Assembly: GCA_951812955.1 (NCBI GenBank)
Contig: OX638340.1
Location: 2,304,001-2,368,000, forward strand
DNA length: 64,000 nt
Direction of reading: 5' to 3'
Source: an uncultured Gemmatimonadota bacterium
Lineage (GTDB): Bacteria; JAAXHH01
Shown here piece by piece: positions 19,863-57,245 of the stretch. Made by a program: the position numbers and the translations under genes. Position 1 is the stretch's first letter. Each line of letters starts with the position of its first letter. The notes under the pieces are model-generated. The model had not been told where the DNA came from. It was given only the letters and a program-made list of their open reading frames with translations, and made no database searches.

Positions 19863-20792
19863 ATGGCACCCACTGAACATATGGAAAGCACGGACAGCGC
19901 CGGATCGCATCGCGCAGGCTTCGTCGCCCTGGTCGGGAAACCGAATGTGGGCAAGTCCACCCTGATGAACGCGTTCCTTCAGCACCGGCTTTCCATCGTC
20001 ACCCCCAGGCCCCAGACCACCCGTCAACGGGTGCTTGGCATTCTGACGAAGGATACCTGCCAGGTCCTGATCCTGGATACGCCCGGGTTGCTCGAACCCG
20101 GCTACCGGCTCCAGGAATACATGCTGCAGTCCGCGGTCCATACGCTGCACGACTCCGATGCGGCCGTGGCCATCGTCGACGCCACCCGTTTCGAACGCGA
20201 TCTCGACGACCGCGTCGTCGGGTTCCTCGAGCATAGCCGCGGACCGGTGATCCTGGCCATAAACAAAATCGACAGGGCATCCAGAACTTCCCTGCTTCCC
20301 ATGATCGACCGGGCCGCAGGCCGTTTCCCCTTTGCCGAGATCGTACCCGTGTCCGCCCTCAAGGGAGACGGTCTCGACCCTTTGCTCTCCGCCGTCATCC
20401 GCCTGCTCCCATCCGGGCCGGCACTGTATCCCGCCGACATGCTCACCGATCAACCGGAACGGTTCTTCGTGGGTGAAATCATCCGGGAGCACCTGTTTCT
20501 GGCCCTGCACGAGGAACTGCCCTACGCATCGGCCGTGATCGTGGAGGACTTCACGGACCGGCCCAACGGCACAGCCTTCATACAGGCGGGTATCATTATC
20601 GAGCGGACATCCCAGAAGGGCATCATCATCGGCAGGAACGGCCGCATGCTGAAGCGCATCGGCACGTCCGCGAGGAAGGCAATCGTCGAATTCCTCGACC
20701 GTCCCGTCTATCTCGACCTGCGGGTCAAGGTCAGGCCGTCCTGGCGTAAGAAAGAACAGGATCTGAAGCGTCTGGGCTACACCACGAGGTGA
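19863..20792 (+). CDS. era: GTPase Era
   Basis: G1 motif GKPNVGKS, then TTR and DTPG motifs. The C-terminal KH domain is present (...GIIIGRNGRMLKRIG...). The start was chosen at the internal ATG (MAPTEH...) rather than the track start at 19752. Confidence 0.9.
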   Translation: MAPTEHMESTDSAGSHRAGFVALVGKPNVGKSTLMNAFLQHRLSIVTPRPQTTRQRVLGILTKDTCQVLILDTPGLLEPGYRLQEYMLQSAVHTLHDSDAAVAIVDATRFERDLDDRVVGFLEHSRGPVILAINKIDRASRTSLLPMIDRAAGRFPFAEIVPVSALKGDGLDPLLSAVIRLLPSGPALYPADMLTDQPERFFVGEIIREHLFLALHEELPYASAVIVEDFTDRPNGTAFIQAGIIIERTSQKGIIIGRNGRMLKRIGTSARKAIVEFLDRPVYLDLRVKVRPSWRKKEQDLKRLGYTTR

Positions 20793-20856
20793 GCGTCGCC
20801 GAGGCGAGCATCTGGGCTACACCGCGAGGTGAGTGTCGCCGAGGTGAGCGTCGCCG
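20771..20856. repeat. Tandem degenerate duplication of the era 3' end (~40-bp unit x2 plus a partial unit) including the stop codon
   Basis: tctgggctacaccacgaggtgagcgtcgccgaggcgagca is followed by tctgggctacaccgcgaggtgagtgtcgccgaggtgagcg tcgccg. The first unit encodes ...LGYTTR* and the second ...LGYTAR*. Confidence 0.75.
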
Positions 20857-20858
20857 CA

Positions 20859-20877
20859 GGGACCTTAAACCGGTCCC
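20859..20877. terminator. Short hairpin (gggacc-ttaaacc-ggtccc) between convergent era and the phosphotransferase gene
   Basis: Visible 6-bp inverted repeat. No clear U-tract. It overlaps the stop codon of the minus-strand gene. Confidence 0.3.
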
Positions 20878-21953
20878 CGCAGCGCTGTGCCTAGTCTCTT
20901 GCCGGCGAGCCCGGCGTACCGTTCCAGATCCTCCCACAACGCCTCCAGCGGCCGGAGTTCGTTCCAGGGCCGGACTGCCTGACGGTCGTATCCTTCGATC
21001 AGGGACAGGATCCGCACGCACCACTGCACGGGCAGGATGGCTTGGTATACGTCCATCTTCTCGAAGGCGTGGGGATCGGCGCTTTTTTCGCAGTAAACCG
21101 CGATCATCTCTTCCCGCAAACCAGACGCCAGCGCCGCGCTCTCCGGATGCCAGAAAAAACCGGCGATCTCGTAAAAAGGGTCCATGATCCCCGCGTGTTC
21201 CCAGTCTACCAGCCCGACGACGTCCCGTTCCGCCTTGATCACATTGGCCGGCCGTAAATCTCCATGACACAGGCGTGGCGGGGCATCTGCCCATAACGCG
21301 GGCTGCAGGTCCGCCATGGCCAGGCACCGCCTCAGGTCGAGCAACCTGTCCACGGTCCGGCAGAAAGACGGATCGTTCATGGCGGGCGATGCGGACATGG
21401 CGCGCATTGTCTCGTCCATATACGCGAGGCAGTCAGCGGGACGGGACGGCCCCGCCGGTGGGGCCAGTAAGGGATCTCCGGGATCCCTATGGCCATGCAC
21501 CGCGACCGCGATTCCGAGGAGCAGGGCCAGGTCCTCCCTGGTCATGCTTGCGGGTACCACCGCCGACCCCGGTAGTTTATCGTAGATCAGCACGGGGGCG
21601 TTCAGAACCGCTGCCAAGGAATCCGCAAAAACGGCATTCGGCACTTCTTCCAGGCTGGCAAGCCGGGTCAACGCCGCAAACTCCCGTTCGAGGCGCCGTG
21701 CGCGATCACCCGGATATACCTTAAGGAGAAAGATGCCTGCGGATGTATCTACTTCGTATATAAGGTTGTTGAATCCGCCGGCCAGAGACCGGACACGGCG
21801 TGGGCCCATGGCGAACCCGTGCCCTTCCTCGGCCAGCCGCCGGAGGTAGCGCGATACGGCCGCCAGGTCCGCGGACTCACCTTCACGGAGCGGCGGCGTT
21901 CCCCGATCGTCCCTGGATTCAGTCATCATCGAGCGATACATAGGACGATACAT
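20865..21953 (-). CDS. Phosphotransferase enzyme family protein (aminoglycoside/choline-kinase-like, APH fold)
   Basis: Kinase-like catalytic loop HGDLRPANVI. Brenner-type motif context LVDWEHAG. Confidence 0.7.
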   Translation of the reverse strand: MYRPMYRSMMTESRDDRGTPPLREGESADLAAVSRYLRRLAEEGHGFAMGPRRVRSLAGGFNNLIYEVDTSAGIFLLKVYPGDRARRLEREFAALTRLASLEEVPNAVFADSLAAVLNAPVLIYDKLPGSAVVPASMTREDLALLLGIAVAVHGHRDPGDPLLAPPAGPSRPADCLAYMDETMRAMSASPAMNDPSFCRTVDRLLDLRRCLAMADLQPALWADAPPRLCHGDLRPANVIKAERDVVGLVDWEHAGIMDPFYEIAGFFWHPESAALASGLREEMIAVYCEKSADPHAFEKMDVYQAILPVQWCVRILSLIEGYDRQAVRPWNELRPLEALWEDLERYAGLAGKRLGTALRGPV

Positions 21954-22109
21954 GACCGGCTGTTCCCTCCTGGCCTTTTCCGATTGCCCGCGGGTCTGCC
22001 CGTTCGTATCTTCATTACTCGGAACCCATCATCCGGCGCACCCCGGAACACAGGTTTCCGAGTGTCCCGTTCCACGTCCGGCTCATCCCTTATACCGGTG
22101 TGATGCAAG

Positions 22110-25757: not shown

Positions 25758-26754
25758 CTTCTCCCACCTCTATGTCGAGCGCGGCGCAGACGAATACTCG
25801 CTCACCCGGCGCATACGGGATCGTTTTTCGAAAGCCCGCGTGGTGGAGATCGACGACTACAAGGCGGTCTTCGCCCGGCCGCGTCAGCGGTTCCAGGCAC
25901 AAAAGGAGACCATGAAACTGATCCTGGCCGTGAAGAAGGACCGGTTCCTGTACGAAGGGTCGGGGAACAGCCAGAACTTCAACCTCGAGGATTTCTACTA
26001 CAACACGCTTATGTTCAATTGCGTGTACAACTGCGACTACTGCTACCTGCAGGGCATGTATCCATCGGCGAATATCGTGGTTTTCGTGAACCTGGAGGAC
26101 TACTTTAAGGCGACGCGCAGGGCCATACGCGAGAGGTCGAACCCCTCGCAGCCGTTTTACCTGTGTATCTCTTACGACACCGACCTGCTCGCTTTCGAGT
26201 CGGTCGTGCCCTATTGCCGCGCCTGGATAGAATTCGCCCGCGAGGAGCCGGACCTGCTCGTTGAAATCCGTACCAAGAGCGCCGCGTACCGCGCCATCGG
26301 GGACCTGTCGCCTTCAGAACGCGTCATCCTGGCGTGGACCCTGTCCCCCGAACCGGTCGCCGCACGCTTCGAACACGGGACGGCGCCGCTCAATCAGAGG
26401 CTGGACGCCGCCCGGTCGGCCATTGACGACGGCTGGCCGGTCCGTCTCTGCTTCGACCCGGTCCTCGCCGTTCCGTCCTGGGAGTCCGTTTACGGAGACC
26501 TGGTCGAGGAGGTCGTCCGGCGGATCGAGCCGGCCGCCGTTCGAGACGTGACCGTGGGCGTCTTCCGATTGTCGAAGATCCATTATCAGCGCATGAGACG
26601 TTTGCGGCGGGATACGCCGCTTCTGTACGACGAATACGTACAGGAGGGCACGACCGTGACCTACACGGCCGAACGGCGGGAGGAGATGACCGCCTTCATG
26701 CGGCAGCGCCTGGGAGACCACTTCGAAGAGGAGCGAATCGTCACATGGACGTAG
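25714..26754 (+). CDS. Radical SAM protein, SPL (spore photoproduct lyase)/COG1533-like family
   Basis: C-x3-C-x2-C motif in the family-typical context FNCVYNCDYCYLQG. Length is ~346 aa. It overlaps the upstream gene by ~44 bp and the downstream SDR by ~10 bp, which suggests an operon. Confidence 0.7.
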   Translation: MQNLKDYAASSRWNNFSHLYVERGADEYSLTRRIRDRFSKARVVEIDDYKAVFARPRQRFQAQKETMKLILAVKKDRFLYEGSGNSQNFNLEDFYYNTLMFNCVYNCDYCYLQGMYPSANIVVFVNLEDYFKATRRAIRERSNPSQPFYLCISYDTDLLAFESVVPYCRAWIEFAREEPDLLVEIRTKSAAYRAIGDLSPSERVILAWTLSPEPVAARFEHGTAPLNQRLDAARSAIDDGWPVRLCFDPVLAVPSWESVYGDLVEEVVRRIEPAAVRDVTVGVFRLSKIHYQRMRRLRRDTPLLYDEYVQEGTTVTYTAERREEMTAFMRQRLGDHFEEERIVTWT

Positions 26755-27464
26755 CACTGGTCACCGGCGCTTCATCCGGAATCGGCCTGGCCATCGCCGC
26801 GCGCCTGGTCGAGTCGGGCTACAACGTATACGGGTATGCCCGCGACCACGGGAAGACCTCCTACCGCCACGCCCGGTACAAACCCGTCGAATGTGACGTG
26901 ACCGATACCCGGGTGCTGCTGGATCGCACCGAGGATTTGCTCAAGGAAACCGGGGGACTGAAGGTCCTGGTCAACAACGCCGGTGTGGGGTTCTTCGGTC
27001 CCCATGCCACCATGGCGCCCGGGCGGATAGAAACCATGGTGCGGACCAACCTGATCGCGCCCATGGTCCTGACCCGGGCGACCCTGCGGCACCTGGAGGC
27101 CTCGCGGGGGTATGTCGTCAACATCGCTTCCACCGCCGCGTTGAATCCCGGTCCCTTCGGCGCGGCCTACGGCGCCACGAAGGCCGGCCTCCACCAGTTC
27201 GGCCAGGCGCTCTTCAGCGAGGTGCGGAAGAGCGGCGTCCGGGTGGTGACCCTGTACCCGGACATGACACGGACGCCGTTTTACGACGGGGCCGACTTCG
27301 AACCCGGCGAGGAACCCGGCACCCACATCACGCCCGAGTGCGTGGCCGACGCCGTTGCACAGGCCGTGGACCAGCGGGAGGGGACGGTGATCACGCAGAT
27401 CGTCATCAGGCCTCAGCGGACGCAAGTCGTCCGCAAGGGAAAGCCGCGGCGGGAGAAGGATTAA
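26745..27464 (+). CDS. SDR-family short-chain dehydrogenase/reductase
   Basis: Cofactor motif TGASSGIGLAIA. Catalytic YxxxK is present (YGATKAG). Confidence 0.9.
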   Translation: MDVALVTGASSGIGLAIAARLVESGYNVYGYARDHGKTSYRHARYKPVECDVTDTRVLLDRTEDLLKETGGLKVLVNNAGVGFFGPHATMAPGRIETMVRTNLIAPMVLTRATLRHLEASRGYVVNIASTAALNPGPFGAAYGATKAGLHQFGQALFSEVRKSGVRVVTLYPDMTRTPFYDGADFEPGEEPGTHITPECVADAVAQAVDQREGTVITQIVIRPQRTQVVRKGKPRREKD

Positions 27465-27508: not shown

Positions 27509-27575
27509 GCGCGAAACCATGCCAACGAATCCGCGCAAACGAGATTCCGCAAACGAACGAAATCCCCTGGCCCGG
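27509..27575. repeat. Degenerate ~20-bp tandem repeats (x3) downstream of the SDR gene, resembling its 3' end
   Basis: gtgaaaccgcgcgaaaccatgc / caacgaatccgcgcaaacgaga / ttccgcaaacgaacgaaatccc. Compare the SDR 3' end ...ccgcaagggaaagccgcggcgggagaagg. Confidence 0.5.
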
Positions 27576-29911: not shown

Positions 29912-30003
29912 CAGGATGCCCGTCCCCGAGGGCGTCTACGGCCGGGACGGGGCGCAACCAATCGGAACCTGGAACAGGATGCAGATCAGACAGGAGCGGT
30001 GAC

Positions 30004-31146
30004 ATGGCAGCAGGCAACACGGTAGAAGGCAACACGGCAGAAGGCAACATGACAACAGGCAACTTACGTATCGGGCTCATCGGGCTCGGAACGGTGTGCG
30101 AATACGTGCATTACCCTGGGTTCTCCCGTATTCCGGGCGTGGAAATCGCCGGGCTGTGCGAGGTGGACGGGGATCTGCTGGCCCGCAGACAGGCACAGTG
30201 GGGCGTCGCGGATGGTTTCACGGACGTGGACCGGTTCCTGGCCACCGTCAAACCGGACGCCGTGGCCGTCGCCGTGCCGAACGTGTATCACCGCGATATC
30301 GTGATTAAATCCGTCGAGGCGGGTTGTCACGTGCTCTGTGAAAAACCCATCGGCATGACCGTAGCGGAGACCGTGGATATGTACGTATCCGCCAGAAACG
30401 CAGGCGTTCGCCACATGACCGCCTTTACCTACCGGTTCGTACCGGGCATGCGCTACCTGAAGCACCTGGTCGACGAAGGGCAACTCGGCGAGATACGCCA
30501 CGCGCGCTTCCAGCGCCTCCAGGACTGGGGCGAACATTCCGTGGGATGGCGCCAGTACCGGCGCATGGCCGCCACGGGGGAACTCGGGGACATGGGCATA
30601 CACCGCATCGACTTCGCCGAGGACCTGCTCGGTCCGATCAAGTCGGTGTGCGCGTCACTGAAGCAGGTCATTCCCCGGGACCGGACGGAGGACGGAAGGC
30701 CCTGCGAACCGCAGGACGTGGAGGACTGGGTCGCCTGGATCGCCGAATTCGAATCGGGGACCACGGGCGTATTCGAGATGGGAAAACTGACCAAGGGCCA
30801 CGGGCCCGGGGGTGATCACGACATCTGCGAGTTGAACGGGACCATCGGATCCGCCGCCTACCGGCTTCACACGCCCTGTGCCATCCTGGCCGGTCCGCGC
30901 CGCGCCAGATACCGGAGACGCCGTGTGCCTGCGGGCTTCCTCACCGTGCCCGGTTCTCCCCGCGACCCGAAAGAAGGCGATCCTGCACAGACTTTTCGTT
31001 TCGACCAGGCCTGGGAGTTCGTCTGTGCCATCCGCGAGGAACGGGACTGCGTGCCTTCCTTCTACCACGGCATGCGCGCACAGGTCGTCGCGGAGGCTAT
31101 CCTCGAGGCGGCCGAGTCCCGGAGGTGGGTGGACGTGCCGGCTTGA
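30004..31146 (+). CDS. Gfo/Idh/MocA-family NAD(P)-dependent oxidoreductase
   Basis: Rossmann N-terminus LRIGLIGLGTV...YVHYPGF. The conserved EKP motif is present (VLCEKPIGMT). The start was chosen at the ATG with an aggagc SD 7 nt upstream. The N-terminal residues (GNTVEGNTAEGNMTTGN) are encoded by 15-bp tandem repeats. Confidence 0.8.
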   Translation: MAAGNTVEGNTAEGNMTTGNLRIGLIGLGTVCEYVHYPGFSRIPGVEIAGLCEVDGDLLARRQAQWGVADGFTDVDRFLATVKPDAVAVAVPNVYHRDIVIKSVEAGCHVLCEKPIGMTVAETVDMYVSARNAGVRHMTAFTYRFVPGMRYLKHLVDEGQLGEIRHARFQRLQDWGEHSVGWRQYRRMAATGELGDMGIHRIDFAEDLLGPIKSVCASLKQVIPRDRTEDGRPCEPQDVEDWVAWIAEFESGTTGVFEMGKLTKGHGPGGDHDICELNGTIGSAAYRLHTPCAILAGPRRARYRRRRVPAGFLTVPGSPRDPKEGDPAQTFRFDQAWEFVCAIREERDCVPSFYHGMRAQVVAEAILEAAESRRWVDVPA

Positions 31147-33261: not shown

Positions 33262-33760
33262 ATGGGACCCTTTCCTGCAACTTTCGATACATGATGTGGG
33301 CATCGACCAGGCCGTGATCGGGATGACTGAACGCGGCCGGTATGGTGCCGGCTATCGTAAACCCCAGGTCCTGCCAGAGCGCCACGGCCCGGAGGTTCGT
33401 GCTTACGACCATGTTGAACTGCATGGCCAGGAATCCCTCCCGGCGCGCTTCGTCGAGGGCGTGCGCTCCCATCGCCCGTCCCACGCCGCGGCCCTGGAAG
33501 CCCGGATCGACCATGAACCCCGCGTTCGCCACGTGGGCGCCCTGCCCGGGCTGGTTCGGCCGGAGAAAGTAGGTGCCCACCACCTCGCTCCCTTCCAGCG
33601 CGATGTAAGTCAGGTTCGGCGGCGCCATCCACAGCACGCGCGCTTCCTCTCTGCCCGTGTCGGGCGGATAGGGATAGGTGTCCGCCCGCCGGACGACCCG
33701 GTGGAAGATCTGCCAGATGGATTCGAAGTCGTCCTCGCCCGCTTGTCTGATCCGGATCAT
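33260..33760 (-). CDS. GNAT-family N-acetyltransferase
   Basis: Acetyl-CoA binding motif QGRGVGRAMG. Length 166 aa. Confidence 0.85.
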   Translation of the reverse strand: MIRIRQAGEDDFESIWQIFHRVVRRADTYPYPPDTGREEARVLWMAPPNLTYIALEGSEVVGTYFLRPNQPGQGAHVANAGFMVDPGFQGRGVGRAMGAHALDEARREGFLAMQFNMVVSTNLRAVALWQDLGFTIAGTIPAAFSHPDHGLVDAHIMYRKLQERVP

Positions 33761-36002: not shown

Positions 36003-36094
36003 TATCGCTTCTTACGTCTATGCCCAACTGCCCTTCGATGTTGCGGTGATGCCAGGCTGCCCCTCGATGTTGCGGTGATGCCAGGACGGTTTCA

Positions 36095-44840: not shown

Positions 44841-44964
44841 CACGGCTGGTCCGATCGGCGGCGGAACTTCCGCCCAGCCTACGGGGGAACGCCCGTCCGA
44901 CCGGCGGCGCATCCCCACGGCCAACCTGTGAGCCGAATCCCATCCCTAAGGAACCCGTCCCGAT

Positions 44965-45735: not shown

Positions 45736-46535
45736 GCGACGGCCTTGGGTACCGCCGTCTCCTCGGCTTCAACGTCCTGCCCTTCGTAAACGACCGACAT
45801 CCAGCCATTGAAACCGACCTGCTTCAGGATCCCGAGAATGCGTGGATAGTCCAGCCACGCTTCCTCGCCGGACTGGACGCGGTAGAACTTCGCCCGGACG
45901 TGCGCGGCGTGCGGCGCGCTTTTCTCCATACTTCCGTAGAAATCGTATGCGGGATCGGGATTGCCTCTCGCTCCCGATGCGCCCGGTGACCCGGCGTACT
46001 GGCCCGTGTCCAGTATATGGGTGAAGGAAGGGTGGTTCACTTCGGTGAGAATCCGCACAACGTCATCGCCCGTGCGGGTCACGCACCCGTGGTTGTGGTT
46101 GTGCAGTCCCACGGCGACGCCCCGGGCGGCCCCGTGGGCGACGACCTCCGAAATCGCGTGGATCATGCGGGTCCACGTAACGTCGGCGGGCGTATCGTCC
46201 CGGTCCCACGCGGCGAAGATGCGCACCATCGGCACGTGCATACGCGCGGCCACGTCGATCCAGTGGTTGACCATCCCGATCTCTTCGGCGATCTCACCGG
46301 CCGGCTTTCCGAAGTTGTTGCTGATGCCGAGGTAGGAGATGGCCAGCCCCCGCTGCAGGCATCGCATGCGCACGTCCCCCAGGTACGCGTCGTCTTCCGA
46401 CGCCAGCGCCCGGGTATGGATGTCGATCCCGTCGAGTTCCATTTCCCGGGCGCGGTCGATGAAGTCGAAAAGGTCCATGCGGCCTTCCGAAATGGCGTGA
46501 CCATAGCTTAAGGACATGCAACCGAGTTTAATCAC
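45699..46535 (-). CDS. Sugar phosphate isomerase/epimerase (xylose isomerase-like TIM barrel)
   Basis: AP_endonuc_2/xylose-isomerase-like TIM pattern with conserved His/Glu/Asp positions (..LHNHNHG.., ..HILDTGQ..). Confidence 0.75.
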   Translation of the reverse strand: MIKLGCMSLSYGHAISEGRMDLFDFIDRAREMELDGIDIHTRALASEDDAYLGDVRMRCLQRGLAISYLGISNNFGKPAGEIAEEIGMVNHWIDVAARMHVPMVRIFAAWDRDDTPADVTWTRMIHAISEVVAHGAARGVAVGLHNHNHGCVTRTGDDVVRILTEVNHPSFTHILDTGQYAGSPGASGARGNPDPAYDFYGSMEKSAPHAAHVRAKFYRVQSGEEAWLDYPRILGILKQVGFNGWMSVVYEGQDVEAEETAVPKAVAYLRRLLDEHGM

Positions 46536-47652
46536 TGCGCGTCTTCCTCTCTCCCGGTGGATGTGCTGTCGCCGGGCTGACTGTCGCCGGGCTGGCTGTC
46601 GCCGGACGGGCGGTCGCCGGGCTGGCTGTCGTCCATCGTGCAGGACTGCTCCAGGAAATAGACCATCACGTACTCTTCCGCCGTACGCTTGGGGCCGGGC
46701 AGGTTTCGGATCCGCCGAGCGTGGGCTTCGAGGTGGCGCTTGACGAAGAACAGATATAGCTGGGTGACGAAATCGGTCGCCGTATGATTGTAGAGGTACG
46801 TGGGCGACAGGGAAAGGGTGGTATCAACGCCCGGATAGGCCGCTGTTTGATGGCCTTCCAGCATTTCCTTGTTTATCGATTCGAGCTCCTCGGTGGACAC
46901 GCTGAACAGGAATTCGCGAAAGGCCTGCAACTCCTCCGGCGGACAGGTTTTCCTGGAGAAGTAATCGAGGAACTGGATGTCGCCGCCGGCGCGCATCAGG
47001 GCGAAGATCTCGGACACTCCCATGAGCGTGCCCAGTTGCACGGTGGTCTGCCGCCGAGCTTCCCAGGTGGTCTCCAGCACGGGCAGGAAGGCTTCGATGC
47101 GCCGGGAAAACCGGTCTTCCCAGAGTAAGGTCAGGGCGGTGGCCGCCTTGGTTCGGACGGCGCGGCCGAGACTGTCGTCGCAGACAATGGCGGTCAGTAG
47201 CGATTCGATCACCTTATTGTGTATGCTCTGGCTGATCCGGTTGCCGATTGCGTCTTCCACGGTCGTGAAATCCTTCCTGCCGCCCAGCGCCTCCTGGGCG
47301 ACCTGGTGCAGCAGCCGGAACAGATTGAGTCGCGCCATGACGTACACCTGCCCGACCGCGGCACGCATGGGCAGCAGCATGTCGACCGTGAACAGCGTGG
47401 CGTTGGAAAGCGCTTCGATCAGGGACGAGGCGTCTCTCCGCTGCTGGCCCAGGGACTGGCTTTGCAGCAGGGAGGGATAGGCGTTCATGACCTTTGCTAG
47501 ATCATTCAGCCGGGCGATGGATTCACAGATCGCCTGGTCGAGGTGCGCGGCGTGGGGATTTCTGCTTTCCTTCAGCGAATCGGTGATATCACAGATCAGC
47601 CGTTTGTCGTCGTGAGTCAGGACGGGCGTATCGAGGGTGGTTGTGTCCAACG
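46532..47652 (-). CDS. Hypothetical alpha-helical protein with C-terminal SQPGD pentapeptide repeats
   Basis: C-terminus DDSQPGDRPSGDSQPGDSQPGDS is encoded by a ctgtcgccgggctgg tandem DNA repeat at 46545-46640. The start is uncertain (TTG near 47650 or ATG near 47490) because the tracked 5' extension overlaps rhaM. Confidence 0.4.
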
Positions 47653-47693
47653 TAATTTTGTTTACCCCGCGCGCGGGGGGCGCGCTTTGCCTG

Positions 47694-48029
47694 CTATTCC
47701 AAGTAGAATACCTGCTCCAGCGGCACCATGTTCTCGTCGGCGTGCTTGCCGCCGAGGTTCTCGAAGTAGGGCGCCATGAACTCCTGCCATCGCGTGTTGA
47801 CGTCTTTTTCGGCCATGGTGGCCAGCGCTTTCTCGAAATCCGGTGTCTCGCAATATCCGAAGAGCAGCCCGTCCTCGCGCATGAAAAGCGAGTAGTTGTG
47901 CCATCCCGCTTCACGCAGGGCGTCCAGCAACTCCGGCCACACCTCCCGGTGGTGCTTCTTGTAGTCTTCGATCATGCCTTCCTTGACCTTCAGGATGAAT
48001 CCCACCCTTTGCATGGCGATCTCCTTCAT
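47694..48029 (-). CDS. rhaM: L-rhamnose mutarotase
   Basis: 111-aa YiiL/RhaM family: ...VGFILKVKEG...YKKHH..VWPEL...GW.NYSLF... signature. Confidence 0.85.
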   Translation of the reverse strand: MKEIAMQRVGFILKVKEGMIEDYKKHHREVWPELLDALREAGWHNYSLFMREDGLLFGYCETPDFEKALATMAEKDVNTRWQEFMAPYFENLGGKHADENMVPLEQVFYLE

Positions 48030-48065
48030 GCTTCGCGCATTATGCCTTGTAACTGACTATTTCTG

Positions 48066-48926
48066 TCACGCCTCGTGCTTGTAACTGACTATCTCGATGT
48101 TCTCGTGGTCCGACCTGCGGGCCCGCTCGAGGGCGTAGGACGTGACCGGGAAATAATAGTGGGTTTCGGCGTTGAGCGAAATGAACCCCTCGGCGTAGGC
48201 GACGTTTCCCGCGCTGCCGAAAGCGCCATCGGAGGTCTCGATGCGTTTCCGCGCGTACGCGCCGCCGTAGCCCTGGCTCACGAGGGCGTCCAGCGAAGCC
48301 AGTTTTTTGTCGACCACGTCGGTGATATCGATGAAAACGTCGTTGTAATACCCGCCGCGGGCGTCCCACACGTTGCGCGGAAGACTCGCCGCGCCGCATC
48401 CCCAATAAAACACCTGTGCGACCTGGTGGGGCGGACGCCGGTCGCCCGGGTCGACGGAGCCGGCCAGTCCCATGGCGAGCATCACAATGCGGCCGGCCAC
48501 GGCGTGGGGGTTCCACGTGCCCCCGCCCTCGTCGGGGAAATGGGTGAGGATGATGTCCGGCTTCAATTCTCGCAGCAGGCGGGCAAGCTGGCGTACGATC
48601 GGCTTCTCGGGCAGCAGTACCGCGTCGTCGGCGCCCAGGAAATAGACGTCTTCCACACCGAGGGCGCGGCAGGCCGAGCGCACTTCTTCCGCCTTCACGT
48701 CGGACCGTTCCGCCATCATCTGTTTCAGCGTTTCCCCCTCCGGCACCTCCTCCGCGTGGAACATCTCGTCGCTGATCACCTTGTCGTGCACGCGGGCCCC
48801 ATGGGTCAATACCACGCAACCTACCCAGTCTCCCCTGGCCGCATGATGGGCCATGGCGCCGCCTGATTGATCGAAAATGTCGGCCGGATGAGCGCCGATG
48901 GACAATATCCGAAGCCGATCACTCAT
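48066..48926 (-). CDS. PIG-L/LmbE-family N-acetylglucosaminyl deacetylase
   Basis: N-terminal ILSIGAHPADIFDQSGGAMA (HPDDE-type motif region). HxxH is downstream. Confidence 0.8.
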   Translation of the reverse strand: MSDRLRILSIGAHPADIFDQSGGAMAHHAARGDWVGCVVLTHGARVHDKVISDEMFHAEEVPEGETLKQMMAERSDVKAEEVRSACRALGVEDVYFLGADDAVLLPEKPIVRQLARLLRELKPDIILTHFPDEGGGTWNPHAVAGRIVMLAMGLAGSVDPGDRRPPHQVAQVFYWGCGAASLPRNVWDARGGYYNDVFIDITDVVDKKLASLDALVSQGYGGAYARKRIETSDGAFGSAGNVAYAEGFISLNAETHYYFPVTSYALERARRSDHENIEIVSYKHEA

Positions 48927-49147
48927 GTAGATACACTCATTCTTCGAAAGGGCGCAATCAACAGGTGTTACGGGTATGTTGTACGCTTGACTGTGGCCGA
49001 TTGAAAGGCTTTCTTGTCCCAGGCTACCGACGGGCCGGATGGTCGGAGACGACGAGGGATTCCGGTTTCGGCGGTGCCTGTAGTTTCGATATCCCGGAAT
49101 ATAGATCGTCGCACCTGCCCGTCAACAGGATTTTCCACAGGGCGCCC

Positions 49148-50377
49148 ATGCTCGCGCGGCTTGGCTCACGCTGGAAAGCGGCCGGTCTGCTTTCCATTAC
49201 CGATTTCCGTTACCTCTGGATATCCAGCAGCATCTGGTGGCAGACGCGCTGGATGGATGAGCTGATCGTCGGCTGGGTCGTGCTGGAGCTGACCGACTCG
49301 GCCGGGATGGTGGCGCTGGTCAGTTTCTGCCGCATGGCGCCGTTCATGCTCTTCGGCCCTTTCTTCAGCACCGTGGTGCGGTACGTGAGCTACCGGTGGC
49401 TGATCGTCAACGCCCAGTTTATCAACTGTACCGTCAGCGGCCTCTTCTGGGCCCTCGCCTTCTTCGGCGATCTCGCCTTCTGGCACATCGTCGTCGGTTC
49501 CATCCTCATCGGCATGGGCAGCGCCTACGACTGGTCCTCCCGCCGGGCGCTCATCCCGGACCTGGTAGGCAAGGACCGGACGACGGACGCCATGGTCATG
49601 GAGACGGTACCGCAGAACATCTCACGGCTGATCGGGCCGCTCATGAGCGGCATCCTGCTCGAGTTTACAGGTACGAAGGGGGGATTCCTTGCCCTCTTCC
49701 TCCTTCAGATCGTCCAGATCGCCGTCATCGTCCGGCTTTCCTCCGACACGGACCGAACCGACCGGAAGAAGAGCCGGCTGGCCCCGTGGAAGGACCTGCT
49801 GCTCGCCTACCGGTATTCCCGCCGGAACCCCCGGATCTCGGGCGTGCTGATCATCACCTTCCTCATGAACGCCTTCGCCTTCTCCTACCAGGTGCTGCTG
49901 CCCGTTTTCGTGCGGGACGTCCTCTTCCTGGGCCCCATGGAACTGGGCCTCCTCGGCGCGGGCACCGGGATCGGATCGATCTTGGGCATCGCCCTGATAG
50001 ACCGACTGGGCAGGTACTACCGGGAAGGCATCATCTTCACCATCAGTTCCCTGCTCAACGCCGTGGCCACGCTGATATTCGCCCTCTCCATGTCATTTTC
50101 CCTCTCCCTGGCCATGCTGATCCTGGTAGGCATCGGCCAGACCGGGTTCAGCATCATGCAGTCTTCGATCATTCTCCGCTCCTCCATAGACGCCATGCGG
50201 GCCCGGGTCATGGGCCTGCTCGTGCTCGCCATCGGCGGAGGTCCGCCGGGACGGCTGCTGGTCGGTTCGCTGGCCGGCGTCGTCGGCGCGCCCCTTGCCC
50301 TGGCTACATGCGCCGGGGTTGCCAGCATGGGCGTCGTGAGTGTGCTGTGGCGGTTGGGGGGAATGCGGCGAAATTGA
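49148..50377 (+). CDS. MFS transporter
   Basis: 12-TM hydropathy. A DR/K motif follows TM2 (..GPFFSTVVRYVSYRW..). The start was chosen at an internal Met preceding TM1. The tracked 5' extension is likely non-coding. Confidence 0.75.
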   Translation: MLARLGSRWKAAGLLSITDFRYLWISSSIWWQTRWMDELIVGWVVLELTDSAGMVALVSFCRMAPFMLFGPFFSTVVRYVSYRWLIVNAQFINCTVSGLFWALAFFGDLAFWHIVVGSILIGMGSAYDWSSRRALIPDLVGKDRTTDAMVMETVPQNISRLIGPLMSGILLEFTGTKGGFLALFLLQIVQIAVIVRLSSDTDRTDRKKSRLAPWKDLLLAYRYSRRNPRISGVLIITFLMNAFAFSYQVLLPVFVRDVLFLGPMELGLLGAGTGIGSILGIALIDRLGRYYREGIIFTISSLLNAVATLIFALSMSFSLSLAMLILVGIGQTGFSIMQSSIILRSSIDAMRARVMGLLVLAIGGGPPGRLLVGSLAGVVGAPLALATCAGVASMGVVSVLWRLGGMRRN

Positions 50378-50500
50378 TGGTTGGGCCGCCGCGGAGAAAT
50401 TGATGGACGCGGCATAATTGACGGGCGCGGGAATTGTGGGACGCGGAGAGACCGGCGCGGAATGATGGGCGCGGGAATTTGACGGGCGCGGCGGCCGCGG
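50378..50500. repeat. Five to six degenerate tandem copies of the MFS gene 3' end (...gcggcgaaattga) filling the convergent intergenic region
   Basis: ggccgccgcggagaaattga / ggacgcggcataattga / cgggcgcgggaattgtg / ...ggcgcggaatgatg / ggcgcgggaatttga / cgggcgcggcggccgcgg. Confidence 0.7.
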
Positions 50501-51883
50501 CTACCTGAGCCAGCCCATACGGTCCTTGCGCCAGCCCAGCCTGTCGAGATGATTTGCGCGGATGGCCTCGATATGCCGGGTGTGCAGTGCCTGCTTCTCC
50601 TCGGTCCACCTGTATTCCTCCAGGCGATCGGCATCGAGCTCGACCCCCAGCCCGGGTCCCTCGGGAACGCGCAGGCACCCGTCCTCGTAGCGCATCTTGC
50701 CGCCCTCGATGACGTCGCCGACCCACTGGTTGTAATGGGCGTCGATTCCGTGCAGCGACATGGGCATGGTCCCGTTGCCGTGTACGATGTGGTAGGGGAT
50801 GTTGTAAGGGAAGGAGAAGGCGGCCACGTGGAGGCGAATGGCCGTGCCCGGGCCCAGTTCGTAGGCGCTGTGCATGCCCAGTTCCATGCCCATGTACCGG
50901 GCGGTGTCGTAATAACGCTTCAGGGAAAGCGGCCCGGCGTAGGCGTCCGGCGCGGAAACGTCGGCGGGCACGTGGCGGCGCATGACATCGAGATCCAGCG
51001 GCTGGTCCAGGGTCTCGTCGCCGTAACGGCCGGAAACCGGGGCGCCGTAGGGACGAGGCGCCGCGTCCCGCTTCAGCGGCGGTAGCCAGGCGTGGGAGGA
51101 TATGGGTATGCTGCTCATGTGGCGCAGGCGGTGGCCGGCGCGGAAGATGTTCTCGAACCGGCCGCCCACCGGTTCCTCGATCCATTCTATCCGGCAATCA
51201 TCGACGCCCTGCATGAACCTGAGCGCCTCGTTCTCGCTCCAGGACGCGTGGGGATCGACGCGGATATCCACGTCGTAACCCACCAGGTCGCGGATATTGT
51301 GCACGAGTTCGATGTATCGCACGGGCTCGAAGTCGCACATGGACAGCTTGATAATGCGGAATGTCTCGTCCTCCATGAGCGACTTCACGTGCCGGGGATA
51401 GGTGTCGAAGGTCACTTCGTTCTCGCCGTTGACGTCAGGGAAACGGTACCAGGTATAGGCCGCGATGGGGATCTTCGTAACAAGGGGTGTATCGAGGTCG
51501 AAGACGTCGCGCAGGTACCGGTAGAGGGGCTTGCCCGCGATCTTGCCGGCGAAGTCCCAGTAGGCGAGACCCAGCAGGCCCCGAATTTCCGGATCGAAGG
51601 GGTTTTTACCCAGGACCTGGGAACGCAGCTCGTCGGCCTCGCTGGAAGAGCCTTCGGCCACGCCCACCAGGCCCTGGTTTGTTTCGAATTCGGCGAAAGA
51701 GAACCCCTCGGCAGACCCGTCCCATCGCTTCGTGCCCCGCCACGGCATCAAAACCCGCCAGGTCCGCACGTCCGTGATTTTCAGCCCGGCCGCCCGTCCG
51801 TTTTCGTTAATCAGATCCTGCCGGGCCTTGATGTCCGCCACGTTCTCCCGGTCGAAGGCGGCGATGGCGTCCACGTTATACAT
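50501..51883 (-). CDS. Enolase-superfamily (mandelate racemase/muconate lactonizing enzyme-like) protein, possibly a sugar-acid dehydratase
   Basis: Length ~460 aa. The assignment rests on overall MR/MLE-like pattern similarity. The specific function is inferred only from context. Confidence 0.5.
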   Translation of the reverse strand: MYNVDAIAAFDRENVADIKARQDLINENGRAAGLKITDVRTWRVLMPWRGTKRWDGSAEGFSFAEFETNQGLVGVAEGSSSEADELRSQVLGKNPFDPEIRGLLGLAYWDFAGKIAGKPLYRYLRDVFDLDTPLVTKIPIAAYTWYRFPDVNGENEVTFDTYPRHVKSLMEDETFRIIKLSMCDFEPVRYIELVHNIRDLVGYDVDIRVDPHASWSENEALRFMQGVDDCRIEWIEEPVGGRFENIFRAGHRLRHMSSIPISSHAWLPPLKRDAAPRPYGAPVSGRYGDETLDQPLDLDVMRRHVPADVSAPDAYAGPLSLKRYYDTARYMGMELGMHSAYELGPGTAIRLHVAAFSFPYNIPYHIVHGNGTMPMSLHGIDAHYNQWVGDVIEGGKMRYEDGCLRVPEGPGLGVELDADRLEEYRWTEEKQALHTRHIEAIRANHLDRLGWRKDRMGWLR

Positions 51884-52295
51884 GGTCGTTTCCCTCTTCG
51901 TATGGATTCAACGTCTCCACGCCGAGCCGGTCATAGACTTGCGGATTCCCGGTGACCACAATCAGCCGGTGCAACACGGCCGTCGCCGCGATCATGGCGT
52001 CTGTCATCCGGGTATTCCATCGCCGGTACAGGAGCCTTCCCCACACGCGGAAGGCGGCCGGATCCATGGGAAGAATACGGTGGGTATCGACCATCTTTCC
52101 CAGCCAGGACTCCAGTTCCGCCGCTTCGGAGGCATCCTTTACGCGGGAAAACTCGATACCCGTCTGGATCTCGCCCACGGTCACGGCGGAAAGATACACA
52201 TGATCGGGGGCGACTCCCGAAAGCCACCCCAACACACGCTGGTGCGGCTGTTTTCGGCGTAGTTCCGATACGACTTCCGTATCGAGGAGATACAT
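51876..52295 (-). CDS. vapC: Type II toxin VapC (PIN-domain ribonuclease)
   Basis: Start MYLLDTEVVSEL (PIN Asp at position 5). ...TDAMIAATA... and TGN motifs are present. Paired with an upstream antitoxin gene. Confidence 0.8.
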   Translation of the reverse strand: MYLLDTEVVSELRRKQPHQRVLGWLSGVAPDHVYLSAVTVGEIQTGIEFSRVKDASEAAELESWLGKMVDTHRILPMDPAAFRVWGRLLYRRWNTRMTDAMIAATAVLHRLIVVTGNPQVYDRLGVETLNPYEEGNDHV

Positions 52296-52299
52296 GGGC

Positions 52300-52560
52300 T
52301 TATTCCATGCTCGTCTCGTCCCGTGTCCTGCTTTTCTCACGCAGTGGCGTCAGGGAGTCCGTACGCGCGTCGGGCGAGAGCAGCAGGTCTTTGAGGCCGG
52401 TTCTGGCCAATCGCTTCATCTGTTCCCACTTGTCGATGGAAACCAGGACCGCCTCCGCGACGCCCCGCCTGGTCACGATCTGAGGGCCCTCTTCCCGGCT
52501 CGTTTCCAGGAATTCGCTGAACTTTGCTTTCGCTTCCTGGACCTGCCAAGCCTTGCCCAT
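52300..52560 (-). CDS. Type II antitoxin, Phd/YefM-like
   Basis: 86 aa. The N-terminus WQVQEAKAKFSEFLETSREEGPQIVTRRGVAEAVLVSIDKWEQM matches the Phd/YefM consensus. The stop abuts the vapC start. Confidence 0.7.
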   Translation of the reverse strand: MGKAWQVQEAKAKFSEFLETSREEGPQIVTRRGVAEAVLVSIDKWEQMKRLARTGLKDLLLSPDARTDSLTPLREKSRTRDETSME

Positions 52561-52777
52561 AGAGTCTCCCGGATCGAAAGTTATATATACTAACTAGTCA
52601 GATAACTAGTTATTTACTGTATGTCAAGTGAAATTCGATCCGCTGCCGTTGCATACGCCACAAAGGGGGCACGGACTTATCCCTTGCCTTGTCGTTCCCG
52701 CCGGGTTTTATTCGAAGCTACGTACTCCCGAACACACTCGCTTGGTACGTGAACTTACACCTCAATACGGAAACGGC

Positions 52778-53581
52778 ATGACCACCGATACAATCCCCCT
52801 GGGTGGCAGGGTCGTTGAACCGGCGCAGATCGGTGAATGGGTCGATGCGTTCAACCGCCAGGGCTTCCTATTTCTGGAAAGCGTGTTGCCGCCCGACTGG
52901 TGCGAATCCCTGCGCAACGACCTGGAATACGGTCTTCGCGAGAACCCGAACGGTTTGAATTCAGTCAGCGAGAACATGGCGCTGTGCCACCGTATGTTCG
53001 AATTCAGCGAGACGAACCGCCGCCTTTTCGACCTCGAACCCATCGTCAGCTTCGCCGAGGCGCTTGTGGCCGAGAACTGCCACGTGATCCACAATAACTC
53101 CTTCGTCACCCGTCCCGGCGGTTTCTTCCGGTGGCACCAGGACGACGCGCCGCATTTCCTGCTGACGGACGGAGAGCCTCCGGAGAACATTCGTCTCCCG
53201 GTTCTCTTCTTCACGTGCAACTACTACCTGACCGACGTCACCGAACCCGAACACGGCGGTACGGAGGTCATACCCGGTTCCCACCTGTTCGGACGCCCCT
53301 GTCCCGATTCGCTGGAAGGGACGGAGTGGGAGGATCGGATTCACTACAACCTCGGTCCGGCCGGCAGCGTCACCATGTTCAACAACCAGGTCTGGCATCG
53401 CGGGGGGCCGAACCGGAGCGACCGGACGCGGTACATTACCCAGATCACCTACGCCCGACGGGTGATCGGCCATAAGTACTACCCCTTTATCAATTACACC
53501 ATGCCCGAACACGTGTACCGGGATGCCGATCCGCGCCGAAAACGCCTGCTCGGATTCCTGGATCACGGCGCGTACGGGTGA
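52778..53581 (+). CDS. Phytanoyl-CoA dioxygenase (PhyH)-family Fe(II)/2-oxoglutarate oxygenase
   Basis: HxD...H facial triad context (WHQDDAP...HRGGPN). PhyH-like length. Confidence 0.7.
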   Translation: MTTDTIPLGGRVVEPAQIGEWVDAFNRQGFLFLESVLPPDWCESLRNDLEYGLRENPNGLNSVSENMALCHRMFEFSETNRRLFDLEPIVSFAEALVAENCHVIHNNSFVTRPGGFFRWHQDDAPHFLLTDGEPPENIRLPVLFFTCNYYLTDVTEPEHGGTEVIPGSHLFGRPCPDSLEGTEWEDRIHYNLGPAGSVTMFNNQVWHRGGPNRSDRTRYITQITYARRVIGHKYYPFINYTMPEHVYRDADPRRKRLLGFLDHGAYG

Positions 53582-53735
53582 GCCGCGCGTCGGGGGATGC
53601 CGCGTTCGGGGGATGCCGCGGAGGAAAAAAGCGCGTCGAAAAATATGGCGTGACGGACAGTCCGCGCGGCCAGAGCTTGTTTGACAACGGGAAAAACCAC
53701 GCACAGAACGGAATTCGTAACTCGAGGAGATATGA

Positions 53736-55620: not shown

Positions 55621-55992
55621 ATGGGTGCGACCCATGTCAAGGTCAGGGTCACCAACCCCGCGGATGCGCAGAAGTACTGGGAGGGGATGTTCTTGGTAGA
55701 CACAGGCGCCACCGACACCCTGGTCCCCGGTCCGCATCTCGAAGGTATCGGTCTGAAGCCGGAGGCGACACGACTTTATGAGTTGGCGGACGGCAGCGAA
55801 ATCTCGGTGGATGTCACCGTGGCAATGCTTGAACTGATGCACGAGAAGGTCGGGGGTACGGTTATTTTTGGCGAACCTGGTGCCGAACCATTGCTCGGAG
55901 TCACCGCACTGGAATCCGCAGGCATTGAAGTGGACCCGGTCAATCAACGTTTGAAGAAACTCCCGTCCGTCCGGTTGAAAGCGATAGCGTAA
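55621..55992 (+). CDS. Retropepsin-like (clan AA) aspartic protease, bacterial single-domain form
   Basis: FLVDTGATDTLV carries the DTGA catalytic motif. Length ~123 aa is typical of Asp_protease_2 family proteins. Confidence 0.65.
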   Translation: MGATHVKVRVTNPADAQKYWEGMFLVDTGATDTLVPGPHLEGIGLKPEATRLYELADGSEISVDVTVAMLELMHEKVGGTVIFGEPGAEPLLGVTALESAGIEVDPVNQRLKKLPSVRLKAIA

Positions 55993-56049
55993 GAATCCCG
56001 CACGCACATGTACATAATAGTCTGGCGAGCCGGATGTGGAGCCTCTTCT

Positions 56050-56163
56050 AAGTGTTACCGCTCTGGATTCCGTCGGTATCGAGGTAGACCCGCTGATCCA
56101 GCAGACCCGCTGATCCAGCAATTGAAAAGGCTTCCCGCAGTTCTATTGAAAACAGTAGCATAA
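56050..56163 (+). pseudogene. Degenerate duplicate of the 3' ~100 bp of the retropepsin-like gene (with internal 17-bp duplication), ending in taa
   Basis: About 70% nucleotide identity to 55897..55992. gacccgctgatccagca occurs twice in tandem. Conceptual translation ..VTALDSVGIEVDPLIQQ.. mirrors ..VTALESAGIEVDPVNQR.. Confidence 0.6.
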
Positions 56164-56245
56164 TGCAGAATCCTCCCGTCTAGGCCGGGTCTGGCTTACC
56201 TGAGAGCTAGCCCGATAGGTGCTAAACGGTGCGACAGGGTACACC

Positions 56246-57136
56246 ATGGTCATCGACATCCACGCCCACGTCTTGCGCTGGCCGGTACTGAAGAAGTTTA
56301 ACAACGGCCTCCCCCTCATGTCGGCCGAGGAGCAAATCAGGCGCATGGACGAGAAGGGGATCGACAAGGCGGTCATCCTGCCCCTGACATCGGCCGAAGT
56401 GATCGGAGAGCCCCAGAGCATGGGCGAAGTCTTCGATATCTGCCGCCTGTATCCGGGAAGGTTCATCCCCTTCTGCGATTTCGACGTGCGGCGATACGAC
56501 CTGAACAGCCCGGACCGGTTCCGCGACGTGCTGGAGCAGTACGTGGCCCGCGGCGCCAGGGGCGTGGGGGAACTGACCTGCCGGGTGTACTGGGACGATC
56601 CCCGACTTTGGGATCTCTTCACGGCAAGCGAGGAACTGGGCCTGCCGGTGACCTTCCACACCTCGCCGCCCGAAGTGGTCACCTACGGGCTGATCGACGA
56701 GTTGGGGTTTCCCCGGTTTGAAAAAGCGCTGCAGCGGTTTCCGAGCCTTCGATTCTTCGGCCACAGCGCCTCCTTCTGGAGCGAGATCAGCGGCGACCTG
56801 ACGGCCGACCAGAAGGAAGGTTACCCCAAGACGCCCGTCGCGCCAGGGGGAACGATTCTCCGGCTGTTCAGGACCTATCCGAACCTGTGCGGCGATCTGT
56901 CCGCAGGCTCAGGGTTCAATGCGCTGACCCGCGACCCGGATTTCACCTACGAATTCCTGGATGAGTTCCAGGACCGCCTGATGCTGGGGCTCGATCACAC
57001 CGACGCCGAACTCGACTTCCAGCATATCGAATGGCTGCGGGCCCGGCGGGACGAGGGACACATCACCCCCGAAGTCTGTGAGAAGATCCTCTGGCGAAAC
57101 GCCGACCGGATCATCGGGTTGGGCATCGCCGAGTGA
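56246..57136 (+). CDS. Amidohydrolase_2 family metal-dependent hydrolase
   Basis: MVIDIHAHV N-terminal metal site. The pattern is TIM-barrel amidohydrolase. The 3' end ...IIGLGIAE* is partially repeated downstream (atggggttgggcatcgtgcaaggggtctga at ~57170-57205). Confidence 0.75.
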   Translation: MVIDIHAHVLRWPVLKKFNNGLPLMSAEEQIRRMDEKGIDKAVILPLTSAEVIGEPQSMGEVFDICRLYPGRFIPFCDFDVRRYDLNSPDRFRDVLEQYVARGARGVGELTCRVYWDDPRLWDLFTASEELGLPVTFHTSPPEVVTYGLIDELGFPRFEKALQRFPSLRFFGHSASFWSEISGDLTADQKEGYPKTPVAPGGTILRLFRTYPNLCGDLSAGSGFNALTRDPDFTYEFLDEFQDRLMLGLDHTDAELDFQHIEWLRARRDEGHITPEVCEKILWRNADRIIGLGIAE

Positions 57137-57245
57137 CTTTGTCGGATACCAGGCCGGGACCCGGTACGTCGCGATGATGGGGTTGGGCATCGTGCAAGGG
57201 GTCTGAGCGCCATCCCGGAGCAGATTCTCAGGCCGGCGCACATGA

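Follow-up and report, generated by a model that had tools for sequence, protein, structure and literature searches.

Short tandem duplications, probably untargeted, at unusually high density in a clade of Candidatus Latescibacterota relatives

In a 64-kb stretch of contig OX638340.1 from an uncultured Gemmatimonadota bacterium (assembly GCA_951812955.1; hereafter the window), several genes are followed by tandem copies of their own last codons and stop codon. These own-tail copies are real, and they belong to a larger set of short tandem arrays that populate spacers and coding sequences alike in the window and in related genomes. The arrays are probably the outcome of ordinary, untargeted short tandem duplication combined with selective filtering, and no new mechanism that targets gene ends has to be invoked. 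This is a known kind of feature; what is newly seen here is a lineage in which the load of such short duplications is unusually high, its array density exceeding that of outgroup loci about 7–25-fold. The original prediction had described a genome-specific process that generates duplications at gene boundaries. Its core, namely that the arrays are duplications of local sequence at a frequency far above that of other genomes, was borne out; neither its emphasis on 3′ ends nor that on a single genome is supported.

To assess chance similarity, the last 40 nucleotides (nt) of 54 genes in the window were aligned to the 250 nt that follow them, and the downstream regions of other genes served as the null (about 2,800 control scores). 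The tails of 5 of the 54 genes scored above every control (era and the genes for Zn-ADH-like, Ig_CycH-like, amidohydrolase and PIG-L proteins; scores 15–33.5 against a null maximum of 14.5). In the same 54-gene set, no gene head compared with its own upstream region exceeded all controls. Tandem Repeats Finder (TRF) returned 55 rows for the window, and the sites claimed in the original prediction were also read directly. Both approaches confirmed the tail copies at era and at the Zn-ADH-like, Ig_CycH-like and amidohydrolase genes as well as the repeat at the 5′ end of the Gfo/Idh/MocA gene, and two cases that had been overlooked, the tail copies of the PIG-L gene and an array spanning the stop codon of a PhyH-family gene, add to the pattern. 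The array claimed for the MFS gene stands in part, as its units are readable by eye and the statistics are weak (p ~0.02). Similarly, the 3′ copy of the retropepsin-like gene was confirmed only partially, in a 70-nt stretch of ~70% identity, 154 nt downstream, that exceeds all shuffles. The array behind the SDR gene, which had been counted as a further tail array, was rejected as a tail copy, since it bears no resemblance to the tail (score 7, p = 0.54).

The anatomy of these sites is that of direct duplication (Table 1). At era, the gene ends at position 20792, and the unit joins its final 22 nt and the TGA to 15 nt of spacer. The Zn-ADH-like gene (ADH_zinc_N domain) ends in VAVRY and a stop codon, followed by four to five degenerate copies of GTGGCCGTACGGTACTGA. 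In the Ig_CycH-like array, every 49-nt copy still encodes SGADVVIDRLY plus a stop codon, and two of the copies lie beyond the gene. All 18 of the 18 aligned homologues of this protein end in ..LY, mostly DRLY, which identifies the extra copies in the window as additions and not as parts of the gene. The units behind the MFS gene (CGCGG..AATTGA-like) resemble its CGGCGAAATTGA end and occupy the spacer between two convergent genes. Within the degenerate duplication of the retropepsin-like gene a young perfect duplication is nested (17 nt x2.1, 56086–56120).

Table 1. Tandem duplications and arrays in the 64-kb window (positions in nt; identities as copy matches where given)
Feature	Position	Strand	Details
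Array at era 3′ end	20767-20856	+	40 nt x2.1, 90%; nested 15-nt x2 after it; tail score 21, above all controls
Tail array of Zn-ADH-like gene (34941-36002)	34860-34966	-	periods 24 (x3.8, 73%) and 47 (x2.3, 81%)
Tail array of Ig_CycH-like gene (41687-42307)	41577-41722	-	49 nt x3.0, 98%
PIG-L gene (48066-48926), tail and copies	48026-48094	-	~1.5 degenerate downstream copies (ATAGTCAGTTACAAG...stop) at ~48026-48065; score 15.5
MFS gene (48965-50377), tail and units	50365-50500	+	~6-7 degenerate 14-16-nt units; TRF 14 nt x4.9, 66%
PhyH-family gene (52628-53581), stop-spanning array	53568-53620	+	16-17 nt x3.2, 86%
Amidohydrolase gene (56219-57136), tail and one copy	57111-57205	+	20-nt copy (GATGATGGGGTTGGGCATCG) ~64 nt downstream; score 15 against at most 13 in shuffles
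Retropepsin-like gene (55621-55992), degenerate ~154-nt duplication of 3′ part	55869-56176	+	TRF and alignment
Gfo/Idh/MocA gene, N-terminal in-frame expansion	30002-30063	+	15 nt x3-4; GNTVE-GNTAE-GNMTT (MAAGNTVEGNTAEGNMTTGN...)
Gene 46532-47914, in-frame SQPGD repeats near C-terminus	46565-46631	-	15 nt x4.5
hemC, in-frame AEQ repeats near C-terminus	14594-14626	-	9 nt x3.7
Spacer-only array, divergent promoter region	19486-19541		26 nt x2.2, 96%
Spacer array past SDR gene (26745-27464)	27524-27557		14 nt x2.5; 60 nt downstream of stop
Spacer-only array, GH32/ADH-like interval	36028-36085		29 nt x2.0, 96%
Spacer-only composite array downstream of NUDIX gene	37684-37806		~41 nt x3
Spacer-only array	63743-63780		13 nt x3.1
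Large tandem duplication, ~4.9-5.4 kb	1-10294	-	FtsX/MacB permease, Big_2 protein, last 440 nt of hemL

An era-based scan using one genome per species assigned the window to Candidatus Latescibacterota, with five relatives (L001–L005) sharing 86–90% and two more distant ones (L006 and L007) 61–68% era identity with it. A homologue search with the Ig_CycH-like protein added seven further loci that are syntenic to ~32–52 kb of the window, several of them on contigs of 0.7–3.9 Mb. The clade set examined below comprises the window and 12 syntenic loci from relatives. Genes were called with a simple codon-usage caller in the window, L001–L005 and the outgroups, which mis-handles a few genes such as Gfo/Idh/MocA, whereas for L081–L088 the gene calls supplied with the loci were used.

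Counting arrays with a period of at least 10 and a TRF score of at least 40 in the 295 kb of the clade, of which ~37.5 kb are non-coding, we found 54 non-coding arrays (1.4/kb), compared with 38 in 185 kb of non-coding sequence (0.2/kb) from 73 outgroup loci (1.08 Mb). The outgroup density rises to 0.35/kb if every out-of-frame “intragenic” array is recounted as mis-called spacer, and it amounts to 0.05/kb (2 arrays in 42 kb) in the 16 outgroups with a G+C content above 55%. The more distant L006 and L007 (50–53% G+C) contained no arrays in 38 kb. Start-spanning and in-frame intragenic arrays likewise exceed the outgroups in the clade. The original prediction had suggested comparing the rate of 3′-end self-similarity with controls and other genomes; in the window and loci, downstream self-matches with a score of at least 15 were found for 14 of 273 clade tails and for none of 969 outgroup tails (Fisher p = 8e-9 for the first clade set alone, 5e-5 once the window was left out), and gene heads in the pooled clade reached this score in 6 of 273 cases. 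As the arrays recur in independently assembled relatives, at 12 Latescibacterota loci, the phenomenon is clade-wide and not specific to one genome.

The positions and lengths of the units are equally informative. The clade arrays comprise 34 that are intergenic only, 15 that span a stop codon, 5 that span a start codon and 43 within genes, a distribution at odds with the proposed restriction to gene boundaries, in particular to the 3′ termini of coding sequences. Unit lengths are multiples of 3 in 39 of the 43 intragenic arrays, in 2 of the 15 stop-spanning and in 8 of the 34 intergenic ones, which indicates that frame-disrupting events have been purged from coding sequence. The evidence favours one of the explanations offered in the original prediction, slippage whose products survive only where coding sequence is undamaged. 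In-frame duplications inside genes occur at several places. The expansion in the Gfo/Idh/MocA gene is missing in all five relatives compared (window MAAGNTVEGNTAEGNMTTGNLRIGL, relatives MSxGNIRIGL), and two Ig_CycH-like homologues (P0007 and P0008) carry an in-frame 13-residue duplication (…RSFEEGQPTPVPERSFVEGQPAA…) in a protein linker.

Comparison of orthologous sites revealed that the same gene ends acquired different arrays independently, that arrays vary between close relatives, as the original prediction had proposed to check, and that empty sites exist. At the stop codon of era, AAGCGGTGAACGGCG occurs twice in L003, a copy of GGGTAYAC...GA is present in L004 and the tail of the convergent gene is found three times in L005, while L001 and L002 have no array. 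The end of the ADH gene carries units of 11 nt (x3.2) in L084, 10–11 nt (x5) in L086, 18 nt (x2) in L087 and 24/47 nt in the window, and is empty in L085 and L088, where the spacer measures 20 nt. An independent threefold array follows the PIG-L gene in L085, with a spacer of 11 nt in four relatives; the spacer between the convergent MFS and MR_MLE genes is 12 nt long in L087 and consists of 45–178 nt of unrelated arrays in other relatives; and a perfect 17-nt duplication (x2) is located at the NUDIX end in L086. At the spacer site between the GH32 and ADH-like genes (window 36028–36085), relatives possess a single unit or other arrays, and the GH32 and aminotransferase spacers vary as well. 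Equally independent and variable arrays were found on the era side of the region, at hemA, hemC, cobA/hemD and the Zn-ribbon and ccsA-like genes. Altogether, empty orthologous sites were identified for era, ADH, PIG-L, MFS/MR_MLE, NUDIX, GH32, hemA, hemC and cobA/hemD, with empty spacers of 11–20 nt. Besides these, the GH32 gene itself is present in L088 in two full-length tandem copies (14334–15863 and 15919–17448).

The youngest and longest stop-spanning case is a perfect 65-nt duplication (x2.0) across the stop codon of an AP_endonuc_2 (xylose-isomerase-like) gene in L085 (7540–7671), a site that is unduplicated in the window and in four relatives. Start codons are affected, too: in L084 (356–474), a 47-nt unit (x2.5, 95%) that includes ...GTGCCATGTATGACG... 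spans the start of the MR_MLE (enolase-superfamily) gene and creates tandem candidate starts. The MR_MLE start also scores in L085 and L087, and the duplication in these three genomes may go back to common descent. A 42-nt in-frame copy downstream of the Zn-ribbon gene (window orthologue 12155–12772) was found in L001 (~2350–2432) and L004 (~2533–2601). It reads CANCGGS/P-stop (CAN(C/T)GG..) in both, although their proteins are only ~75% identical, and it is missing in the window, L002, L003 and L005; slow decay after shared ancestry or a read-through extension could account for it.

These comparisons also bear on the suspicion that the arrays are artefacts of assembly or binning. Every genome considered is metagenome-derived, and the 5.4-kb duplication at the beginning of the window mixes 99.5% with 80% identity in a suspicious mosaic. 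Yet arrays were present in 13 independent assemblies, including megabase contigs (2.9 and 3.9 Mb) that would, judging by their names, come from long-read data, as well as short-read contigs; orthologous arrays are common to independent assemblies (window and L081, L001 and L005, L001 and L004); and the diverged copies are unlike the products of repeat mis-assembly. We therefore consider an artefact hardly conceivable.

Once formed, arrays continue to change. L081, which is 97% identical to the window, has the same 49-nt x3 array behind the Ig_CycH-like gene, but the identical pair consists of copies 1 and 2 in L081 and of copies 2 and 3 in the window. Likewise, copies 1 and 2 of the hemA array match each other exactly within L001 and within L005. 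Such different identical copy pairs are the signature of ongoing expansion and contraction. In several instances the working stop codon itself has moved. The C-terminus of the ADH protein has changed from VAVRY to VAVRWP, each followed by the stop codon, in L084; in cobA/hemD of L002 and L003 a new TGA has arisen upstream, and the ancestral GAATAA|CAATTGCC end now lies downstream of this TGA; and the PIG-L gene of L085 stops in a diverged first copy, with the last copy retaining the ancestral junction to the ribosome-binding site of the next gene. Separately, the ADH-like gene of L086 (15899–16870) appears frame-shifted, as the called gene stops early and the ancestral tail follows downstream.

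Could the arrays be maintained for a function, as back-up stop codons against read-through, as transcription terminators, as iterons bound by proteins, or to keep closely packed or convergent genes apart? A stop codon is present in each tail copy, the copy behind the Zn-ribbon gene reads in frame in both L001 and L004, and spacers that once measured 11–12 nt now measure 45–178 nt. The original prediction had in fact pointed to several in-frame stop codons behind each gene. With so few stop-spanning units being multiples of 3, however, the copied stop codons are mostly out of frame. Furthermore, copies decay freely (66–81% identity in old arrays), the stop codon has been lost from copy 3 of the 49-nt array in L081, arrays come and go among close relatives without any compensating feature, and neither a consistent RNA structure nor an Rfam family was detected. 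A selected function is thus very unlikely.

The units themselves are specific to their locus. The best score between arrays was 9.5 (shuffle maximum 10), no dispersed copies of units of at least 17 nt were found elsewhere in the window, and the units, 10–65 nt in length, abut directly without foreign DNA between the copies. Folding of 13 arrays gave minimum free energy z-scores from −2.6 to +2.0, relative to mononucleotide shuffles only, and no consistent structure. Searches of the 64-kb window against Rfam at the gathering score yielded no match to structured RNA families. Among 20 window proteins scanned, none was a reverse transcriptase, integrase or transposase. Because the units are unrelated, undispersed and adjoining, and neither such an enzyme among the scanned proteins nor an Rfam match nor a consistent fold accompanies them, attachment (att) scars, dispersed repeats such as repetitive extragenic palindromes (REP), miniature inverted-repeat transposable elements (MITE) and mycobacterial interspersed repetitive units (MIRU), template copies of retroelements and known RNAs are excluded as their source, which leaves duplication of local sequence without a target.

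Att-like scars deserve a closer look, since repeated integration and excision had been the second explanation offered in the original prediction. Integrative elements are known to produce a second copy of the 3′ end of the gene that they target. An element that targets 3′ ends would bring a replacement tail along and leave a duplicate on excision, and repeated rounds would build an array; L086 carries a gene for a Y1 transposase ~9 kb from the compared sites. However, Pfam annotation of the 20 window proteins and the Pfam lists of six syntenic loci next to arrays contained no integrase, recombinase or reverse transcriptase. Copies adjoin each other, units differ by locus and, at one locus, by species (11, 18 and 24/47 nt at the ADH end, without any fixed core), and arrays are also found in spacers and within genes. 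Genuine tRNA targets are missing as well, as Rfam found none and the ARAGORN calls lie inside Big_2 repeats. The adjoining, variable and motif-less units already contradict this reading, which we rejected as extremely improbable. Two further candidates were likewise discarded. A diversity-generating retroelement does not fit because the scanned proteins include no reverse transcriptase, the four differences between the era copies are transitions in both directions (G/A, A/G, C/T, C/T) and the copied segment extends over stop codon and spacer. REP sequences, bacterial interspersed mosaic elements (BIME), MITE and MIRU-type dispersed repeats do not fit because there is neither a shared consensus nor a consistent structure.

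Untargeted duplication followed by selective filtering would explain these observations as follows. Relying on hardly any microhomology or none, replication slippage or template switching would duplicate any local sequence of 10–65 nt throughout the genomes of the clade, and the copies, once present, would expand, contract and decay. Selection would clear frame-disrupting duplications, so that the survivors would be arrays that lie in spacers, that stay in frame within tolerant protein segments, or that have one or both ends outside a gene. Damage to a protein requires both endpoints of a duplication inside the gene, and a duplication that crosses the stop codon should for this reason be tolerated; its first copy would keep the protein intact, and its second copy would mimic repeated last codons plus stop. 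Since ancestral spacers in the clade are very short (11–40 nt), many of the tolerated duplications should include a gene tail. As to the molecular route, we infer slippage, template switching or unprocessed flaps. One site is suggestive in this respect: the 11-nt unit of L084 at the ADH end fits exactly between the AAGGT...AAGGT pair that pre-exists in the empty sites.

Two sets of observations weigh against this interpretation. First, microhomology-mediated tandem duplications (MTDs) in the strict sense arise between flanking repeats of at least 4 nt; a 5-nt AAGGT pair is present at the empty ADH sites, but five perfect young arrays have just 0–2 nt of junction homology, which leaves the classical microhomology route no more than a candidate. 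Second, stop codons are hit more often than expected. Of the 54 non-coding arrays, 15 (28%) span a stop codon, compared with 14.1% of surviving events expected from a model in which arrays were collapsed to one unit and duplications of the observed lengths were placed uniformly (p = 0.0066), a roughly 2-fold excess, and this residual excess could reflect a modest true 3′ preference. The share of start-spanning arrays was as predicted (5 of 54, 9%, against 11.9% expected).

A mutational process focused on gene 3′ ends, for instance where replication meets terminating transcription or at terminator hairpins, would account for this excess at stop codons. It would also fit the repeated independent events at the ADH end (4 of 6 genomes with comparable ends), in the MFS/MR_MLE spacer (6 of 7) and at the era end (4 of 7), and the 14 self-matching tails as against 6 heads. 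On the other hand, 34 of the 54 non-coding arrays, those that are intergenic only, touch no stop codon, the clade excess extends to start-spanning and in-frame intragenic arrays, and the difference between tails and heads is not significant in the comparison of 9 of 144 with 2 of 143 (p = 0.06). The stop excess is not significant for young arrays with at least 93% matches either (5 of 20, p = 0.14), and, as described above, consistent secondary structures are missing. Moreover, constraint and longer detectability would each yield such an excess. We attribute it mainly to three factors: constraint on the remaining spacer, such as promoters, ribosome-binding sites and missed small genes; slower decay, as a tail copy conserved with the protein keeps an array detectable for longer; and noise in gene calling, which was imperfect at half of the loci. 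A process focused on 3′ ends is therefore unlikely, and we return to untargeted duplication with selective filtering as the probable explanation.

Within this explanation, the clade excess points to raised formation, for example through weak processing of flaps or single strands by exonucleases, or else to slow removal. A more far-reaching version, which we regard as doubtful but worth stating, is a heritable mutational bias of the clade, due to defective flap or exonuclease processing or to an unusual polymerase, that produces tandem duplications of 10–65 nt at about 10 times the usual bacterial density, with a real but modest 3′ preference. If true, such a bias would keep lengthening spacers and rewriting the C-termini of proteins, and genomes in this uncultured phylum would evolve in a mode of their own.

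At a larger scale, the beginning of the window contains the tandem duplication of several kilobases that the original prediction had placed with its edge at the hemL 3′ end. The duplication is real, but one edge lies inside hemL, 440 nt before the stop codon. With endpoints in hemL and past the FtsX gene, it leaves either interrupted gene with one intact copy, the same tolerance principle on a bigger scale. Positions 3207–4903 and 8598–10294 are 99.5% identical, while the flanks (1–1789 and 4933–6723; 2401–3125 and 7332–8051) show 80–86% identity, a mosaic suggesting either that gene conversion has recently acted on an old duplication or that the assembly is chimeric between strains. Of the FtsX/MacB copies, the second falls into two overlapping frames (5946–7541 and 5170–6900) and is probably a pseudogene, and the copies of the Big_2 gene differ by an internal 528-nt domain repeat. 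ARAGORN called a 93-nt tRNA-Gly(ccc) three times in this region (3335–3427, 8198–8290 and 8726–8818, plus strand); these calls are almost certainly false, as they lie inside the minus-strand Big_2 repeat and have no Rfam support.

Several neighbouring genes merit mention. A 355-amino-acid ankyrin-repeat protein is encoded at 33757–34824 on the minus strand and is kept in all syntenic relatives. Repeat proteins of this eukaryote-like type are often read as hinting at host association, for example with sponges or corals, and the isolate names of some relatives are compatible with host association. The gene for an AlkZ-like DNA glycosylase adjoins an N6/N4 DNA methylase gene (43965–45735), and a PIN-domain toxin gene lies, together with a small upstream gene that corresponds to PhdYeFM in relatives, at 51876–52560; as far as tested, neither pair is linked to the arrays.

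These results do not indicate a new molecular machine, and the point worth following is the reason for the 7–25-fold excess. If this excess is genome-wide, the clade would represent a natural bacterial case of a raised load of short tandem duplications and could be used for studying how duplications form in bacteria, a process much better known from yeast. The clade would also show the pace at which spacers grow, from 11–12 nt to more than 100 nt, and how C-termini are remodelled when a duplication moves the working stop codon. For annotation, caution is advised, as tail copies can pass for small genes, pseudogenes or att sites.

In comparison with known systems, the arrays behave like slippage-type or minisatellite arrays of the variable-number tandem repeat (VNTR) kind: their copies are adjacent, their units are specific to the locus, they vary from relative to relative, and inside genes they survive in frame only. 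The att sites of integrative elements present a gene tail and stop codon twice, too, but they flank kilobases of foreign DNA and come with a fixed core and an integrase, none of which was found here. In Mycobacterium tuberculosis, the MIRU/VNTR loci reportedly described by Supply et al. in 1997 and 2000 consist of tandem units of 10–100 nt in short operon spacers, their copy number is said to vary by strain, and some are said to overlap flanking stop or start codons. MIRU form one dispersed family, whose consensus is common to ~40 loci, whereas the units in the clade are unrelated between loci. A duplication mutator phenotype has reportedly been observed by Tishkoff et al. (1997) in yeast rad27/FEN1 and by Nagata et al. 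(2002) in 5′-nuclease mutants of Escherichia coli polA. The duplications of such flap-endonuclease mutators are ~5–100 nt long, with flanking homology that is short or lacking, and resemble the spectrum in the clade, which makes a defect of this type a candidate cause only.

MTDs, well described in yeast, are frequent, reversible and frame-filtered in essential genes, and their rate of detection in E. coli was 1/20 of that in yeast (PMC8639346). Like the clade arrays, they are head-to-tail, tens of nt long, genome-wide and reversible, with frame shifts purged from genes and no frame bias in intergenic sequence; unlike them, five perfect young arrays of the clade have only 0–2 nt of junction homology, and it is in a group of bacteria that fixed arrays abound. 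No paper on gene-tail-plus-stop duplications as a systematic bacterial feature or on tandem repeats in Latescibacteria turned up in literature searches. The novelty claimed in the original prediction holds to that extent, but an enrichment of repeats next to start and stop codons has been published: a survey of ~5,400 genomes reported, as a general and modest trend, that tandem repeats are overrepresented in the intergenic space of prokaryotes beside start and stop codons and that old units are replaced by new ones (PMC12418385). Both data sets agree in that repeats are commoner just outside coding regions and that their units are continually replaced. The survey gives no tail-plus-stop copies, whereas the clade described here combines a density 7–25 times that of outgroup loci with explicit overlap of stop codons.

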